IMG/VR virus record: IMGVR_UViG_3300050821_007134
Span: 64,001-128,000 of that record
Direction: 5' to 3' (one strand)
Length of the DNA: 64,000 bases
From: a virus
This document shows positions 2,713-47,351 of this stretch, piece after piece (the stretch's first letter is position 1; each line of letters opens with the position of its first letter). Position numbers and translations under genes: made by a program. The notes under the pieces were generated by a model. The model saw only the letters and a list, made by a program, of their open reading frames with translations, was not told the DNA's origin and ran no database searches.

Positions 2713-3219
2713 TTGAAATCCCTTAGAAATCATGAAATTGTAGACATCCTGTGGCGTCATGGCCGATGGGTCTAAGCTGCCTGCGTCTTCCTTATCAATT
2801 TCAATAAGAATATCTGCTACCAATTCAGAGCAAACATAAGAAGATCCGCTATAGAATGGATTGTGAATATTCTTTCCGAAGATCCTCATGAAAAGAACGG
2901 CGCCAAACCCTATGATTTGGCCTACTCCATATGGAGATCCGCATTTATCTATAGCGCCTTGAATGGCAGTTTTCTTTGTTAGCGGTGTAACAGGTACGTT
3001 GAACTCTTCGTAAACTAACTCCACATCATCAAATGAAGTTTGGCCGATGAAGTTTACTTTAAGGCCGCTGGCTTGATAGACTAACCATCGGTTATATTCT
3101 TCAGAGTAGAAACGAATATAAGCGTGGGAAAATTTCGACCTAGTAATTGCCCTAATGATCCAACTGAATGGTTCAAAGAAAGCCTTAGGTCTAGAAAATC
3201 CCACGATTATAGAATCCAT
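2698..3219 (-). CDS. permuted papain-like NlpC/P60 amidase (YiiX/YebB-like)
   Basis: N-terminal FSHAYI His motif, PYG, C-terminal YVCSELV Cys motif, TPQD. Confidence 0.75.
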   Translation of the reverse strand: MDSIIVGFSRPKAFFEPFSWIIRAITRSKFSHAYIRFYSEEYNRWLVYQASGLKVNFIGQTSFDDVELVYEEFNVPVTPLTKKTAIQGAIDKCGSPYGVGQIIGFGAVLFMRIFGKNIHNPFYSGSSYVCSELVADILIEIDKEDAGSLDPSAMTPQDVYNFMISKGFQSVAG

Positions 3220-26338: not shown

Positions 26339-27307
26339 TTAGGGGCCAGTGTTGCCGCTGATTAATGTAACTGCGGTCTGAGCATAGAGAGATCCGTGAA
26401 CCGTACATGTCGCTTGAACTGCGATTGATGTTTGATCCAAGATAACGCCTCTGAATATTGAACTTGTTTTCAGAGTGGTTGCGCCTGCAACTGCCCATGT
26501 AACGTTTTGTGGCAAGATTCCACCAGTCAAATGAATTTGAACACCAGTTTCTAAATTGAGAGTACCGGCAATTTGAAGGATGATTGAATCTGCGGGTCCG
26601 CCATTGATAGTGATATCACCAGTGACATCGACTGCTGTGGACCATTTGTAAATCCCAGGAGTTAAAGTTTGACCGTTAAGAGTACCTGCGCCTAAGTTAA
26701 CAACCGGAGCTGGGCTTGTTTGTGCTTGAGCAAAAGTGTAAGCAGCTTGCATTGCACTAACAGCTGCCGTTAAGTTTGCAGGAGTTGGAGCTGCGTTATC
26801 GGAAGCATCCACGTTTCCAGAAACTTCAACAGCACTTCCATGTGGGCCAGCGAGATTTGGAGTGTATGTGAAACCAGTGATTGCAGTATGTGAAATTGGA
26901 CTTACTGCAATGTTACCTGTAACTGTTGCGCCGGATGCATTGCTGATTCCAGATTCAGCTAACATTCTGTAATTTGAAGCAGAACCTAAGTTTACCAAAG
27001 CTGGGCCACGATGAACAGGAATTGCGCAATGAGCATTGATGCTTGCAACGACGGCTTCCATAACATCATCACTTGCGAACCCATCTTCCATTACTGCTTG
27101 GTCATGCAGAGAAAGAGATCTTTGACATAACATAGCAGCTTGAATATTTTGGGCTACGGTTTTGCTGCCCATGGCGTCTGTCAATCTAATGAAAGTTTTT
27201 GGTGAGAGAATTGCGCCAGCATCGATTGCTGCACAAAATTCTTTACCGGCTTTTACGTCTGCCAGTGCGACAATGACGTTGGGAATAAATTTACTCGGGA
27301 ATGCCAT
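26339..27307 (-). CDS. DUF3494 ice-binding-like protein with ~100-aa N-terminal domain (possible capsid decoration)
   Basis: VNLGSASNYRMLA...GNIAVSP...AMQAAY...GQTLTPGIYKW...NVTWAVAG...FRGVIL...LYAQTAVTL. Confidence 0.85.
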   Translation of the reverse strand: MAFPSKFIPNVIVALADVKAGKEFCAAIDAGAILSPKTFIRLTDAMGSKTVAQNIQAAMLCQRSLSLHDQAVMEDGFASDDVMEAVVASINAHCAIPVHRGPALVNLGSASNYRMLAESGISNASGATVTGNIAVSPISHTAITGFTYTPNLAGPHGSAVEVSGNVDASDNAAPTPANLTAAVSAMQAAYTFAQAQTSPAPVVNLGAGTLNGQTLTPGIYKWSTAVDVTGDITINGGPADSIILQIAGTLNLETGVQIHLTGGILPQNVTWAVAGATTLKTSSIFRGVILDQTSIAVQATCTVHGSLYAQTAVTLISGNTGP

Positions 27308-30997: not shown

Positions 30998-32512
30998 ATG
31001 GCCACTCTAATTCACGGGATTGCCGCTTCAGAAAATATTGACTCTTCGGGCGAAAGAATCATCATTGCCGGTATGGATATTTCCAGTCTTGAAAAAGACG
31101 GAGTTTTCAACTGGGAACACAAATCTGACCAACCAGCTCAAGTAGTTGGTAAGATATTGAAAGCAAAGAAGATTTTCTCAGAAAAAGACTGCGAAAATGA
31201 GCATGAAAAGCGCTTTTGGGAAAAATGTGGAGTTCCATTCGTCTATGTAATGGGCGAACTTTTGGATGACTATAAAGAATCAGCCAAAGAAGTGGCCGGT
31301 ACCTTCCGATACGATCATGATCACAAAGACCGCGACGAACGCAGTATTTCGAACTTCTCTATAGAAGGGGCTAAAATCAACAAAGTAGGAATGGACGTTC
31401 CTAATTCTATTGCGCGCAAGGTCACGATTACTGTCCATCCCTGTAATAAAGTGGCCATCGCCACCCTTTACCCTACAGATAAAAAATCACATTCCAAAAA
31501 AGATGATATAGATTCACTATTTAAGACCGAAAGTACGGAAATTGAACTTTTCAAAGCAGAAGATCTCGATTATGGTAAAATGACCCTTTCTGAGGCCATG
31601 GCCAAAAAAGAAGATCCTGCCGTTCATGCAAAAGCCTTGGGAGTTGAACCTATGAAAAAAGAAGATATTGCCGGTACGACTGGCGCTCCCGCCAATGTCG
31701 CGCAACGCGCCCTTCCAATGATTAAAGCCGGTTCGGCCCCCGCGAAACCCAATTTAAACATAGTTGGCGAAAATGGCCATAAACTTGGTACGACTAAGGG
31801 CGGCCATGATATTCATAGTCACAAACGGGTCCACGAATATGGTCCAATGCATCCTAATGATCACCTTGAAGCTGCGAATATGCACTTTAATGCTGCTCAG
31901 GCCGCCCGAGACCCAAAAACAGGATCTCATCATATGGATAAAGTCCGTCTTCATATGGAAGCACATAAAACTTCCTCTCGTAGGGAAGAAAGACTTCATC
32001 CAAAGGAAAAATTGGCCAAAACCCTAGATGCTGGTTCTATGATGGCTCCGCCTGCCGGATTATCTGGAGGCGCCGCATTACAATCTGAAAGCCTCGGCGG
32101 GAAAATGCAAAATACTTCCTTTGGTATGAAATCCAAAGAAAAGAAAAATAAGTGGCTTGCTCGCGCTGAAGAAGAATATCAGGTTTGGAGCAAGAAAGAA
32201 GAATTCTCTGGCTTCATGCAGCAAAAACTCCCTAACTTTAAAAAACATGAAATCGATGCAATTGGTCGAACTGTCGCCCTCAAAAAGGGTATGGCCGAAT
32301 CAAAAAAATGGCTCGCTAAGTTTGGATACTCTGAAGATGGCGTTCCTTCTGGCACAATGGGCCAAAATACTCCCGGCGGAAGCGCTATTGCCAAATCAGA
32401 TATTATGATGGCTTCAGAACGAAGTAAAAACGAAATGCGCAAATTCTTCTCCAAAGCCATAAATGAACAAGCCAAAGATTTAAAGACAAAAGATATCAAC
32501 GAATTATGTTAA
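30998..32512 (+). CDS. prohead (maturation) protease with long C-terminal extension
   Basis: GIAASENIDSSGE...FNWEH...FSIEG...VTITVHPCN (HK97/SPO1-type protease motifs). Confidence 0.8.
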   Translation: MATLIHGIAASENIDSSGERIIIAGMDISSLEKDGVFNWEHKSDQPAQVVGKILKAKKIFSEKDCENEHEKRFWEKCGVPFVYVMGELLDDYKESAKEVAGTFRYDHDHKDRDERSISNFSIEGAKINKVGMDVPNSIARKVTITVHPCNKVAIATLYPTDKKSHSKKDDIDSLFKTESTEIELFKAEDLDYGKMTLSEAMAKKEDPAVHAKALGVEPMKKEDIAGTTGAPANVAQRALPMIKAGSAPAKPNLNIVGENGHKLGTTKGGHDIHSHKRVHEYGPMHPNDHLEAANMHFNAAQAARDPKTGSHHMDKVRLHMEAHKTSSRREERLHPKEKLAKTLDAGSMMAPPAGLSGGAALQSESLGGKMQNTSFGMKSKEKKNKWLARAEEEYQVWSKKEEFSGFMQQKLPNFKKHEIDAIGRTVALKKGMAESKKWLAKFGYSEDGVPSGTMGQNTPGGSAIAKSDIMMASERSKNEMRKFFSKAINEQAKDLKTKDINELC

Positions 32513-32656
32513 TCGTGCGGTGGGGATGGACCCGCGTGCCAACGAAGCATCCGTAAGGGTGGACGATCTCAATCCGCAGACCACGTTGGACAGATTTCGT
32601 AGAGCCATATGATTGAGGGCGACTACGATAGCCGGAATCAAGCCCGGCACACGGTT
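32511..32656 (+). ncRNA. candidate structured RNA with kissing loops and tRNA-like outer frame
   Basis: GC-rich intergenic stretch with six complementary segment pairs, followed by a terminator. Confidence 0.55.
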
Positions 32657-32659
32657 TAG

Positions 32660-32684
32660 GCCCGCCAGTGATGGCGGGTTTTTT
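32660..32684 (+). terminator. intrinsic terminator
   Basis: CCCGCCA-GTGA-TGGCGGG-TTTTTT. Confidence 0.85.
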
Positions 32685-32685
32685 C

Positions 32686-32713
32686 TTGCCTTTTTCTAAA
32701 TTAGCGCTATACT
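32686..32713 (+). promoter_or_regulatory. putative sigma70-type promoter for ligase operon
   Basis: TTGCCT-16 nt-TATACT. Confidence 0.45.
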
Positions 32714-32748: not shown

Positions 32749-33942
32749 ATGAAGAATTTTCCTACTCTTTACAAGAAAACATCAACAGGCGCGATTCAGT
32801 TTTGGACAATAGCAACATGGTTTGGACGGGAATCTGAAACTGGAGACGACGCACAGGATTATACGGCAAGTATCATAACTACCTATGGCCAGCTTGGAAC
32901 AGACAGTCCACAAGTGACTCACGACAAAATCAAAGAAGGTAAAAACAAAGGTAAGAAGAATGAAACTTCAGCCGAACAACAGGCCGATGCAGAAGCTCAA
33001 GCTAAATGGGAAAAACAAAAGAAAAAGGGCTATGTTGAAACCAAAGAAGAAGCTGAAGCTGGTACCGTGGATGCTATCATTGAAGGCGGCATCGTGCCTA
33101 TGTTGGCTCACAAATTCAGAGATCAAGGACATAAAATAAAATATCCCGCATTCGCTCAACCTAAATTGGACGGCCATCGTTGCATTGCTATTGTAAAAGA
33201 CAGCCAAGTTTCTCTTTGGTCACGTACTCGTAAGAGAATCACTTCCATGCCACATATCGAGGCTGAAATTGCTGAAATATTTAAGGCTAGCGCTGACGGC
33301 ACAACTTACAATGCCATTTTGGATGGCGAGCTTTACAACCATGACTTTAAAAAGGATTTCGAAAAAATAACATCTGCCATTAGAAAAGAAAAACCAGAAG
33401 AAGGCTATTTGAACGTTCAATATCATATCTATGATATGGATAGAAATGGCGATTTCGAAGACAGAACTCGTACTCTGCGCGGAATAATGACAATTCATGA
33501 AGATAGAAATGGACCATTCAAGTATTTGAAGCGTGTAACTACTCAATGGGTAGAAAATGAAGAACAGCTCATGGAATTTTTTGAAGCATCTCTAGTTCAA
33601 GGATACGAGGGCGCGATGGTTCGGAATGCCGCAGGAGAATATGAAAACAAACGTTCCTACAATTTATTAAAAATCAAGGAGTTCGATGATGCAGAGTTCC
33701 CAATTATTGGAATTGAAGAAGGGCGTGGAAAGCTTGCCGGGCACGCAATTTTTATTTGTCGGGATGGAAAAGGAAAGGAATTTTCTGCTAAAATGCGCGG
33801 AGACACATCGAAACTTAAAGAATTCTTCGATAACCGATCGCTGTGGGATGGAAAAATGCTCACTGTGCAATATCAAGGGCTTACAGGCAAGGAAGGCGTT
33901 CCTAGATTTCCTGTTGGGGTACGTATAAGGGAGGACGCATGA
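32749..33942 (+). CDS. ATP-dependent DNA ligase (N-terminal WGR-like domain); probable start MKNFPTL at 32749
   Basis: QPKLDGHR adenylation motif, LDGELY, YEGAMVR, LLKIKE, PRFP. Confidence 0.9.
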   Translation: MKNFPTLYKKTSTGAIQFWTIATWFGRESETGDDAQDYTASIITTYGQLGTDSPQVTHDKIKEGKNKGKKNETSAEQQADAEAQAKWEKQKKKGYVETKEEAEAGTVDAIIEGGIVPMLAHKFRDQGHKIKYPAFAQPKLDGHRCIAIVKDSQVSLWSRTRKRITSMPHIEAEIAEIFKASADGTTYNAILDGELYNHDFKKDFEKITSAIRKEKPEEGYLNVQYHIYDMDRNGDFEDRTRTLRGIMTIHEDRNGPFKYLKRVTTQWVENEEQLMEFFEASLVQGYEGAMVRNAAGEYENKRSYNLLKIKEFDDAEFPIIGIEEGRGKLAGHAIFICRDGKGKEFSAKMRGDTSKLKEFFDNRSLWDGKMLTVQYQGLTGKEGVPRFPVGVRIREDA

Positions 33943-36193: not shown

Positions 36194-36198
36194 ATTTG

Positions 36199-36281
36199 TG
36201 CGGGATAACTGGAGAACTGGTTGCACCAGACTGGCCTCATAAGCCAGAATACGAAGGGCCATGCTACTTCTCCCGCAACCA
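36199..36281 (+). tRNA. tRNA-Met/Ile2(CAT)-like, non-canonical D and T arms
   Basis: acceptor TGCGGGA/TCCCGCA, A-CCA end, anticodon arm CTGGC-CTCATAA-GCCAG; T-loop lacks TTC. Confidence 0.7.
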
Positions 36282-36289
36282 AATCATTA

Positions 36290-43972: not shown

Positions 43973-45745
43973 TTAGGGCCTCTCATTCGCTTCGTTTACA
44001 TATTGATCGGCCTGTGATGTCGCTCGACCGAATTCAGCGTCAGCCTTGGCTTCAGATCTTTCGAACTGATCGTCCCTAGGATGGCATACGATGCCGCCGC
44101 AGGTTCCAAGGATGGTTGCGATACTTACCGCATTAGATAAAGATTCCTCCACAGCCTTCGTGGCGTCAAATAGGCCTAACTCCTCAGCTTTTCCGAATCG
44201 TTGATTTTCAATGTCGTAGACTTCGTCAGGACTTTCGATCAATTTCCTAATAACGGCTTCGGCTTCTTCCGGGATGTATCCGGAGTTATCCAGAAGCTTA
44301 TTCGGTAGCGAAAGGAGGGACGGCATGAGTACTTCCCTTGCCGGGTCTCCGGCCTCAAGCTCAGAATCCAGCTTAAGCGCCATGTCGATTGCGATTCGGC
44401 AGCCGCCTGGCAAAGCTCCATGTTTAATGGCGCTTCTGACTGCGCATACGGCGTCTTCGCATCTATCGTGAGCTTCTTTGAGTTCGCCATTTGAACCCCC
44501 ATAAATGGTTAATTTGGCAATACCGTTTGTAATTTTACCCAATCGTTCTTGAAGCCATATTCTATCGGCTTCGGATTCGGCACCTTCCATCATTTTGTTA
44601 AGTTCTTCTGCGCGCATTTCTACCAATGTAGTATCGGGGTTACCGATAACTGTGGATCGAAACCTGTAGCATTCAAAAGACTCTGAACCAACACCAAGTT
44701 GACCCATATGTCCATTCTGAACTGGGTCCTTCATACTGAACACTTTGGCCCCAGTAAAGGCGGCCAAATCATGTAAGAAGTGGAGTTGACTATTAGTGAA
44801 CTGATGCATTGGCGTAACCAGTGGAACAACATTCAATGTGTTTGGATTGTTCATGTTAAACGCCAATTGCGTCAGGACTGTTTCGCTAAAACCATGAGCA
44901 ACGATTACAATATTCTTGTAATCACTGTCACCTTCTTCAACGAACTTTTTTCCGCAGCTGTCTAAAAGGCCTTGGAAACCCATTAAATCATTTACATTAC
45001 CGTCATAAAGGATGTAGAGAGGTTTTTCTAAGTAGCATCTTTGGTTGGCTTGATCATTGATGAATGCTGTGTGAAATTTACCAATACTCTCTTCGTATCC
45101 CATAGGAATAGGAAACCCATCGATTCGCTCGACCTTATATCCGGATTTTCCGGAAAGTTCGCGAATTGTGACGTGGGAACTATCTCCATACCCTACTTCT
45201 TCAAATGCTTGGATAACGGCATTGGCCATATCAGTATCGCCATTGGCGCTGACAGTCGCAACCATCTTAAGCATTTCTTTATTATCTACGCCGACTTTAA
45301 TGCTACGAGAACGAATGTAAGGAACCAATAATTCTTTGGTTACTTTTGCAATTCGTCTAGCGGCTTTCTGAGGGCTGTATTTTGGATTCTTTTTACAGAA
45401 ATCAAATAAGTTAGCTATAATGTTATAAGAAAGGATGGTAGCCGTAGTGGTACCGTCTCCCGCTTCGGATGCGGTTCTCTTAGCGGCATCGCGAGCTTGC
45501 TCGGTGATCAAATGCTCATATGCATCGATTGCGCCTAGACTGTCAAAAACAGTAACGCCGTCTTTTGTATTTTTGTTGCCGATTCCAGGGAAATCACTTT
45601 CTATTAAAATATTCATGCCGCCGGGGCCAAGCGTTCTTCCAACGGCTTCTGAGACACGGTGCATCGTTTTAAGAATTTTATTCTGAAGTGTTTTTTTGTC
45701 GATCTCATAAACCTTAGGGGCCGACTTCGCTTTTCTATAAGACAT
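43973..45745 (-). CDS. groEL: GroEL-like chaperonin (start MSYRKAK at 45745)
   Basis: TLGPGG, TKDGVTV, GDGTTTAT, SANGD, EDAVCAVRSA, PGG; AGGAGG RBS. Confidence 0.92.
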   Translation of the reverse strand: MSYRKAKSAPKVYEIDKKTLQNKILKTMHRVSEAVGRTLGPGGMNILIESDFPGIGNKNTKDGVTVFDSLGAIDAYEHLITEQARDAAKRTASEAGDGTTTATILSYNIIANLFDFCKKNPKYSPQKAARRIAKVTKELLVPYIRSRSIKVGVDNKEMLKMVATVSANGDTDMANAVIQAFEEVGYGDSSHVTIRELSGKSGYKVERIDGFPIPMGYEESIGKFHTAFINDQANQRCYLEKPLYILYDGNVNDLMGFQGLLDSCGKKFVEEGDSDYKNIVIVAHGFSETVLTQLAFNMNNPNTLNVVPLVTPMHQFTNSQLHFLHDLAAFTGAKVFSMKDPVQNGHMGQLGVGSESFECYRFRSTVIGNPDTTLVEMRAEELNKMMEGAESEADRIWLQERLGKITNGIAKLTIYGGSNGELKEAHDRCEDAVCAVRSAIKHGALPGGCRIAIDMALKLDSELEAGDPAREVLMPSLLSLPNKLLDNSGYIPEEAEAVIRKLIESPDEVYDIENQRFGKAEELGLFDATKAVEESLSNAVSIATILGTCGGIVCHPRDDQFERSEAKADAEFGRATSQADQYVNEANERP

Positions 45746-45803
45746 CTTGTGTCCTCCTGTTTCTCGCTTTGTATATATCACAACTCCATGATATACAAAG
45801 CGT

Positions 45804-47351
45804 ATGGAATTAATTATTGAAAATCCCGTGAAGGCCGTCATTAAAGGGGCCGATGTACAAACCTTGATTGCTCTTAAAGAAGAGCTTACCTACGTTAATA
45901 CGGGGAATAAGCAACAACTTAAACGCCTGGTCCACAGTCAATGGGAGAAAAATAAAGATCCCGAGAAATGGGCTGCTGACATTGAATGGCTTAAGAACCA
46001 CATAACTAACGTCCTCATGTTTAAAGATCAACAAAATCAAGTATTTATACGTCCGGGTTCAATTTCATATTTAACACAATTTACAGATTACAATTTACAA
46101 ATTGTAAATCATGTGGAATATCCAACACCTAAGGCGGTGGCTTGGGCTCATAAGCTACCATTTGAATTACACGACTATCAACAAGAGAGTGTCGACAAGT
46201 TTATTGCGGTGCATCATGGCCATGTAGCACTTTGTACGGGGTCCGGAAAGAGCGCAATCATCCTAAAGTATTGTAGAGAGACAGGTTTTCGGACTGCCAT
46301 TGTAGCACCTTCATCTAGCATTTTTAACGAGCTTTATGACAAATTTGAACATCATTTAGGTCGAGTTCATACGGGCGGTTTCGGGGATGGTAAAAAGAAA
46401 CTGGACAAAAGATTTACAGTTTGCATTGGCGATAGTTTGGTCAATATAGAAGAGGGCAGCGAAGAATGGGAATTTTTCAGTAACCTCGATGCCATCGTTG
46501 TCGACGAAAGCCATACATGGGCCGCTGAAACTCTTGACAAACTTTGTCATGGCCTTTTCGCGAAAGTCCCGAATCGTATCTTCTTAAGTGGTACGCAGGT
46601 TCGCGGAGACGGCGCCGGTAAGCTCCTGGAGAGCATCATTGGCCCAAGGCAGGTAGAACTCACCACTGAAGAGGCTATCAGGAAGGGTTACATTTGTGAC
46701 CACGATTTCTCGATTGTAGAGCTTGAGTCAAGTAATCCCAGTTATCAAAATGCCGATATAATGAAAATGAAGCGCGTTCACTTCCTAAACAATAGAAATA
46801 TCGCGGCCTTTACGGCCAAGTTCGCAAATGTTATGGCAGCTCAAGGATTACAAACTCTTGTTTTAGTTCAAGAATTAAGTCAAATTGCAATGTTCATAAA
46901 GCTGCTTAGGCCGGAAACGACGTTTGCTTATGCGCATAGTCAAACATCCAAAAAGGAACTTTTAAAAATAGGTCTTGAGCCGGTCGACAAAGAAGACGCA
47001 GTTGAAAGATTTAATAAAAATGAGATCAAGGTCCTAATAGGAACAAGCTGTATCGCCACGGGAACCAATATATTCCCCATGAGACATACATTCAATTGGG
47101 TCGGAGGATCTTCCGAGATCAACGCGAAACAGGGGGCCGTAGGCCGCACAGTTCGCCTGTGGGAACATAACCCCTGGAAAGACAAATGCGTGAGACATAC
47201 CAAAAAGACGATCTGGGATTTCGATGTCTATGATATAGATGCATTAGGACACCAACTGGTTAAAAGAATTGAATATTATAGAGATTCTGGAACCGAAATC
47301 AAAAGGATCAATTTAAGTGGCAAAACAAAAGCGTCAGGAGAGGTTCGATGA
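45804..47351 (+). CDS. superfamily 2 DNA helicase (UvsW-like)
   Basis: TGSGKS, VVDESH, SGT, TGTNI, QGAVGRTVR. Confidence 0.85.
   Translation: MELIIENPVKAVIKGADVQTLIALKEELTYVNTGNKQQLKRLVHSQWEKNKDPEKWAADIEWLKNHITNVLMFKDQQNQVFIRPGSISYLTQFTDYNLQIVNHVEYPTPKAVAWAHKLPFELHDYQQESVDKFIAVHHGHVALCTGSGKSAIILKYCRETGFRTAIVAPSSSIFNELYDKFEHHLGRVHTGGFGDGKKKLDKRFTVCIGDSLVNIEEGSEEWEFFSNLDAIVVDESHTWAAETLDKLCHGLFAKVPNRIFLSGTQVRGDGAGKLLESIIGPRQVELTTEEAIRKGYICDHDFSIVELESSNPSYQNADIMKMKRVHFLNNRNIAAFTAKFANVMAAQGLQTLVLVQELSQIAMFIKLLRPETTFAYAHSQTSKKELLKIGLEPVDKEDAVERFNKNEIKVLIGTSCIATGTNIFPMRHTFNWVGGSSEINAKQGAVGRTVRLWEHNPWKDKCVRHTKKTIWDFDVYDIDALGHQLVKRIEYYRDSGTEIKRINLSGKTKASGEVR

Follow-up and report, generated by a model that had tools for sequence, protein, structure and literature searches.

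The window, by which we mean the whole stretch of 64,000 nt that was analysed, is part of the 171-kb virus record (IMGVR_UViG_3300050821_007134) of a large uncultured phage whose major capsid protein is 52% identical to that of Myxococcus phage Mx1. Portal and large terminase genes are present in the window, together with a putative prohead protease gene in opposite orientation to the capsid operon. This gene has a weak PHROG 1028 match (E 3e-4), and the N-terminal 206 aa of its product are 38% identical to the Mx1 'putative prohead protease' (E 5e-35); a Pfam search of the product gave no match. Its TAA stop codon (32510-32512) overlaps the start of the closing stem of a tRNA-shaped RNA, of which the genome contains one copy. 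The features of the locus are listed below with the evidence for each, where L001 and L004 are two relatives with further copies of the RNA and R2 is a model of the wider RNA family.

30998 to 32512, plus strand: putative prohead (head maturation) protease gene, 504 aa (PHROG 1028 match; homology to Mx1 protein)
32511 to 32656, plus strand: whole tRNA-shaped RNA, 146 nt (R2, built without the window copy: 47.6 bits, E 4e-7)
32511 to 32517, plus strand: 5' strand of the acceptor-like closing stem, pairing with 32650-32656, A 32649 unpaired (double change in L001)
32518 to 32535, plus strand: CG linker (tRNA positions 8-9) and D-like arm, stem 32520-24/32531-35, loop 32525-30 (family position counts, pair types)
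32539 to 32589, plus strand: insert domain A, stem 32539-44/32584-89 (same helices with other sequence in L004 and L001)
32597 to 32628, plus strand: insert domain C, stem 32597-602/32623-28, inner stem 32604-06/32618-20 (comparison of three copies)
32630 to 32648, plus strand: conserved A, then T-like arm with 5-bp stem 32631-35/32644-48 and 8-nt loop (family counts)
32658 to 32684, plus strand: intrinsic-terminator-like hairpin (32658-32681) and U tract (sequence; a terminator also follows the RNA in L001 and L004)
32686 to 32713, plus strand: sigma-70-like promoter match, outside the RNA, for the next unit (consensus match)
32749 to 33942: DNA ligase gene, the next unit after the RNA, preceded by the promoter-like site

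No promoter match was found directly upstream of the RNA, so that it would most simply be the 3' end of the protease transcript. A separate terminator had been proposed in an earlier note made from the sequence alone, and the hairpin at 32658-32681 agrees with this; the hairpin after the RNA in L001 is 88% identical to it and the one in L004 is different. The late expression suggested in the same note was inferred from the head gene only. Elsewhere in the window an ice-binding-like protein (PF11999) is encoded just after the capsid gene (26339-27307, minus strand) and a GroEL-like chaperonin at 43973-45841 (minus strand). A degenerate tRNA-Met(CAT)-like gene with a CCA end, missed by ARAGORN at default settings, lies at about 36198-36283 (plus strand), with a structured non-coding region of about 640 nt downstream.

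The RNA stretch has a G+C content of 57%, compared to 42% for the window. Its plain folding energy is unremarkable (z -1.1), 26 of 200 shuffles folding equally well. The D-like arm has a 5-bp stem and a 6-nt loop (32525-30) carrying GG at tRNA positions 18-19. The stem of domain A encloses two elements, the GNRA hairpin at 32548-61 and, on a weak 2-bp mini stem (32564-65/32575-76) that was read by eye, kissing strand B (32568-74); domain C presents kissing strand B' (32611-17) in a loop of 11 nt in all three copies. The T-like loop corresponds to the tRNA T-loop pattern plus one extra base, within an arm whose sequence is partly imposed by the search patterns used to collect family members. 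The motifs named in the earlier note were all found where it had placed them, apart from the register of a GCGG/CCGC hairpin: a hairpin does exist there, but the proposed register reuses closing-stem base 32517, and the relatives as well as the family consensus give 32520-24/32531-35. The A-B-A'-C-B'-C' order with its 7-bp loop-loop pairing, also recognized in that note, was matched by none of 1000 dinucleotide shuffles, in the window and in each of the two relatives.

The two further copies were obtained by a protease-based search of relatives and occupy the same place; both keep every helix of the window RNA, and in all three copies the TAA stop of the protease overlaps the closing stem. The L004 insert is 88% identical to that of the window, with compensatory changes in the D stem and in the kiss and a change from a wobble to a standard pair in the GNRA stem; its closing stem comprises 5 bp only. 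The L001 insert shows 47% identity, equal to the mean for shuffled sequence (47%), yet forms the same stems, the GNRA hairpin, the 11-nt loop and a 9-bp kiss. L001 also carries a both-sided change in the closing stem and a U for C in the T-loop. Between the window and L001, third codon positions of the protease are 62% identical, terminators 88% and inserts 47%. The covariation check in homologues suggested at the outset thus revealed compensatory changes in the D stem, the closing stem and the kiss. Three of the seven kiss pairs changed on both sides across the three copies, one of them occurring as three pair types, a covariation made up of few events because this type of insert turned up in three copies only. 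Matched loops have predicted pairing strengths of -8.4 to -10 kcal/mol, as against -0.2 to -4.5 kcal/mol for mismatched loops of different phages. A pattern search of IMG/VR for this insert type recovered only L001 again, and blastn of the window copy against cultured phages gave nothing useful. As judged from the covariation, the RNA is a real structured element with genuine loop-loop pairing.

The three carriers fall in one supported clade (99/97), which also includes L102; the L102 protease is 79% identical, yet the RNA is absent at this site. It is likewise absent after the protease in L005 and in P0005's locus, both just outside the carrier clade. These absences in close relatives refer to this site only, since the contigs are short and a copy could lie elsewhere. 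The RNA was found in none of the more distant protease loci scanned with model R1, which was built on a poor automatic alignment and is a screen only. Such patchy presence marks the RNA as accessory, at least at this position. Other small RNA genes occur here: 8 of 69 distinct relatives have a tRNA in the 260 nt that follow the protease stop, and six of these tRNAs are Met-CAT, within about 40 nt of the stop. In L615 a YrlA-like RNA (2963-3069, plus strand; 38.9 bits, below the gathering score) lies between the protease and a TROVE/Ro60 gene, and sequence similar to it follows the protease in L008 and L057. About 4 kb past the protease of another relative, L612 (G001:C1:118727-118879, minus strand) is a canonical member of the family described below (66 bits), located upstream of tRNA-like genes; its insert is different and also has a 6-nt loop complement. 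Just after the protease in L032, L058, L062 and L063, the leader of the next gene contains a conserved element, about 80 nt long and closed by a stem.

The post-protease position is a slot for small RNA genes, which weakens the argument from closeness to a head gene. This bears on the analogy with the phi29 pRNA drawn in the earlier note, which a position after a head gene and loop-loop complementarity in a small phage RNA had suggested. The pRNA, however, comes from a different virus group with a different packaging motor, whereas the window RNA has a tRNA frame and is dispensable at its site, being absent there in L102, L005 and P0005's locus and from the distant loci screened with R1. Large terminase and portal genes are present, no Rfam pRNA match was obtained, tRNAs take the same slot in relatives, and the neighbors of family members include no dominant gene family. 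We consider a prohead or packaging RNA highly improbable, and the analogy is not supported.

Pattern scans of viral contigs and bacterial genomes for the D-like and T-like arms yielded at least 139 parsed members of a wider family, all counts from these scans being lower bounds. Under the common plan, the 7-8-bp closing stem leads through a CG linker into a D arm (5-bp stem, GAWGGA loop) and then into the insert; after this come an A, a T arm (5-bp stem, 8-nt loop) and the closing strand. The insert is hypervariable (43-173 nt among these at least 139 members) and contains no shared anticodon arm. CCA is encoded in 2 of the 139 members listed and is not encoded in the window copy, to which a host enzyme could add it. 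In a frame alignment of 70 members 97.5% of cells are paired, with both-sided changes at 12 of 18 pairs; none of 500 shuffles paired as well, and the value is far above that of slid controls. The closing stem by itself shows both-sided change at seven of eight pairs. It often extends beyond 7 bp (95 of 131 have an eighth pair, and some stems reach at least 15 bp), and in one subgroup (L234, L267, L272, L273, L420, L460, L464, L475, L489 and L558) it reaches about 15 bp, with CCATCA and TGATGG at the stem ends. GG at positions 18-19 and the T-loop pattern U-C-purine-A-N-pyrimidine are kept across the family as sequence patterns. Conservation of the T arm and D loop is overstated because both are partly fixed by the search patterns; the D arm also emerged independently from a scan that used only the T arm.

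The window copy has the closing stem, the CG linker and the 5-bp D stem with GAWGGA loop on the 5' side, and on the 3' side the A, a GCCGG stem with the 8-nt loop NAUCAAGC and the closing strand, plus the extra unpaired A 32649. Model R2, built from the 70 members with the window copy left out, finds the window RNA as well as L004 and L001, in a test that is not fully independent because the patterns behind the training set were first taken from the window copy. The earlier proposal of a discrete structured non-coding RNA with a tRNA-like frame is upheld by this score of 47.6 bits and by the helices kept in L004 and L001. The frame comparison shows that the window RNA belongs to a family, widespread in phages, in which the tRNA body (acceptor, D and T arms) is retained. 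Unannotated members were found in the cultured phages Caulobacter DMCA, Pseudanabaena Pan3 and Komagataeibacter phiKX1, and others in genomes of several phyla. L283, L384 and L402 each have two members with different inserts in one locus, L283 with repeated flanks and a repeated closing stem.

At gathering and E-value thresholds Rfam assigned no family to the window RNA, as the database check named in the earlier note would ask, or to the members, a tRNA match in Pan3 being a piece within the insert. ARAGORN found nothing in the window RNA, and one member plus flank had no match in E. coli genomes. No description of the family was found in the literature; the frame may figure in the list of 10,006 candidate viral RNAs published by Fremin et al. 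in 2023 (PMC10690425).

Neighboring genes of the members are heterogeneous; packaging genes are included, and among the members listed no gene family occurs more than twice. A same-strand tRNA lies within 700 nt in 18 of the 139 members listed. Members occur in all orientations to their neighbors, at a median distance of 140-190 nt. This argues against a cis-acting end module of the protease mRNA, in which a tRNA-type cut at the closing stem would remove the stop codon and limit the protease, or the fold would protect the 3' end. Such a module would account for the TAA stop in the closing stem of all three copies and for the terminator directly after the RNA, but close relatives lack the RNA here and the stop overlap may record a single insertion event. 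We regard a cis-acting role as improbable.

Taken over the whole family, the inserts gain little folding stability over shuffles (mean z -0.37) and have no motif in common. Loop-loop pairing in other inserts shows a mild excess (15 versus 7.6 expected; in a second test 47 versus 30), and most inserts have no clear kiss. It follows that the strong kiss belongs to the insert of this clade, and perhaps to a minority of other inserts, rather than to the family as a whole. The inserts of L572 (3060-3125) and L203 contain tRNA-like pieces (T-arm sequence; Rfam tRNA match in Pan3), which suggests that inserts can be captured from tRNA genes. The tRNA body might on the other hand be a chassis for processing and stability, with the kissing-loop insert as the working aptamer for a lineage-specific host or phage protein. 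That all helices are shared at an insert identity no higher than that of shuffles speaks for selection on the fold, or for insert exchange. The frame of this clade is moreover its degenerate part, with the bulged A, the 5-bp closing stem of L004 and the U for C in the L001 T-loop; as the insert fold is kept, the insert could matter more than the mimicry. The poor folding of family inserts, their lack of a shared motif and the absence of a linked target count against an aptamer, which we rate as somewhat unlikely, ahead of the other alternatives.

Among described molecules the closest is RNA2 of phage T5 (AY543070, 32959-33083), annotated as 'tRNA-like stable RNA with unknown functions'. Its 8-bp closing stem and CG linker are followed by a 5-bp D stem capped by a GAUGG...A loop, and by a folded insert where a tRNA has its anticodon arm; an A precedes the 5-bp T arm, and CCA is lacking. 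It differs from the family in its 8-nt D loop, canonical 7-nt T loop, other T-stem sequence and location in a tRNA cluster. RNA2 is the best R2 match in the T5 locus, with exact ends, but scores only 11.9 bits (E 0.22); with the same architecture it works as a precedent for the kind of RNA. RNA C and RNA D of phage T4 (species 1 and 2; NC_000866) are likewise stable RNAs of small size (120-140 nt) encoded next to tRNA genes, and RNA C ends in a T arm and closing stem. It is more distant than T5 RNA2, and both T4 RNAs lack such a D arm and gave no full-length R2 match. With tRNA itself (RF00005; class II Leu, Sec) the window RNA shares the acceptor-D-T order, GG at 18-19 and the T-loop pattern; we take the family D arm to read like that of tRNA-Leu, and the extended D stem and 8-bp acceptor to recall tRNA-Sec. 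It differs from tRNA in the missing anticodon arm, C at position 8, the 8-nt T loop and a CCA that is rarely encoded in the family.

Membership in several known classes was considered and rejected. For tRNA (RF00005), the anticodon stem-loop is absent and the RNA was found by neither ARAGORN nor Rfam. For bacterial Y RNA (YrlA, RF02553), there was no Rfam match and no linked Ro60 gene, and the order of the window RNA is that of a standard tRNA, not a permuted one. Neither a tag reading frame nor a model match was found for tmRNA. Resemblance to group II intron ends (GUGCG near the 5' end, a domain-V-like 3' stretch) is not borne out by L001, where a change breaks that pairing and keeps the closing stem. 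A ribozyme, one of the three options in the earlier note, fared no better, since no ribozyme model scored at threshold. The T-like arm does resemble the twister P4 hairpin, and another member gave a weak Rfam match (E 3.5), but the inserts contain no conserved cleavage-site bases, and self-cleavage seems to us very doubtful. In the twister arrangement the D-loop base needed for P4-loop pairing varies between A and U without a matching change; correspondingly, Watson-Crick pairing of D-loop and T-loop via the variable D-loop base showed no covariation in that register.

The manA RNA (RF01745) is another phage RNA below 200 nt, with a closing stem round a multi-arm junction, a final hairpin and loop-loop pairings; in S-CREM1 it is located between tRNAs. 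Its conserved motifs differ from those of the window RNA, it has no tRNA-type D loop and it contains more kissing pairs. The manA model, which works on S-CREM1 (96.6 bits, threshold 55.2 bits), found no match at E 10 in the genome. Through intermolecular kissing loops manA forms pentamers, decamers and a 60-mer (bioRxiv 10.64898/2026.07.01.735769). By analogy, kissing between molecules could build rings or cages from the window RNA, each subunit presenting a tRNA-like elbow. The similar size and multi-arm plan of manA RNAs, the strong kissing codes without cross-pairing between lineages and the mild excess of loop pairings in other inserts fit this idea. The covariation fits pairing inside one molecule equally well, and within- and between-molecule kissing cannot be told apart because our basis is sequence comparison. 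Several points weigh against assembly: the two arms lie next to each other and differ little in length, a single kissing pair was found as against two or three interfaces in the pentamers of manA, the model of manA gave no match, and most inserts lack a clear kiss. Rings or cages are thus unlikely, and it is less likely still that they would act as self-assembling, multivalent decoys whose many tRNA elbows engage host tRNA-targeting defenses.

Of the three options in the earlier note, a tRNA mimic is the best. We tentatively favor an accessory, non-decoding tRNA mimic that would occupy host proteins binding the tRNA body, probably as a decoy, with the kiss formed within one molecule. In such a scheme the RNA would be transcribed as the 3' end of the protease mRNA, the terminator stopping the transcript, and would be freed by the nucleases that process host tRNAs (RNase P for the 5' side, trimming for the 3' side), to accumulate as a stable RNA. 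By tRNA numbering, the GG (18-19) together with the T-loop pattern is expected to join the D and T loops into a tRNA elbow. The anticodon and variable arms are replaced by a folded insert that varies between phage lineages and in this clade consists of two arms joined by the 7-bp kiss, which would make it compact and nuclease-resistant. In the least certain step the RNA may bind or distract host proteins recognizing the tRNA body, e.g. tRNA-attacking anti-phage effectors. Phage tRNAs have been discussed as decoys or supplements against tRNA-cutting defenses (PMC13096335).

A tRNA mimic is supported by the pairing and covariation of the frame, by GG 18-19 and the T-loop pattern, and by the missing shared anticodon arm and rarity of CCA. 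The slot is consistent with it, holding tRNAs or a YrlA-like RNA in relatives, as are the canonical L612 member before tRNA-like genes, the members near same-strand tRNAs, the common plan with T5 RNA2 and the accessory presence. Against it, no partner protein is linked to the heterogeneous neighborhoods, closing stems above 7 bp would be a non-standard RNase P substrate, and the D/T conservation is partly imposed by the search patterns. Neither a CCA-adding gene nor a Ro60 gene was found in this genome. Many of the known tRNA-cutting effectors attack the anticodon or the variable loop, and the window RNA has neither. Cutting in the variable loop is described in PMC13096335.

The window RNA is a variant within a known class of phage RNAs that still lacks an explanation, and it is most unlikely to be a pRNA; T4 RNA C and D and T5 RNA1 and RNA2 are still annotated as stable RNAs of unknown function. 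For such RNAs the family, which is absent from Rfam and newly modelled here (R2), provides a large alignable set, and its copies in the cultured phages DMCA, Pan3 and phiKX1 permit deletion tests. As the window insert keeps its fold and kiss at background sequence identity, the inserts would not all be filler. The three natural loop codes, which do not cross-pair, make the question of kissing within or between molecules directly testable.
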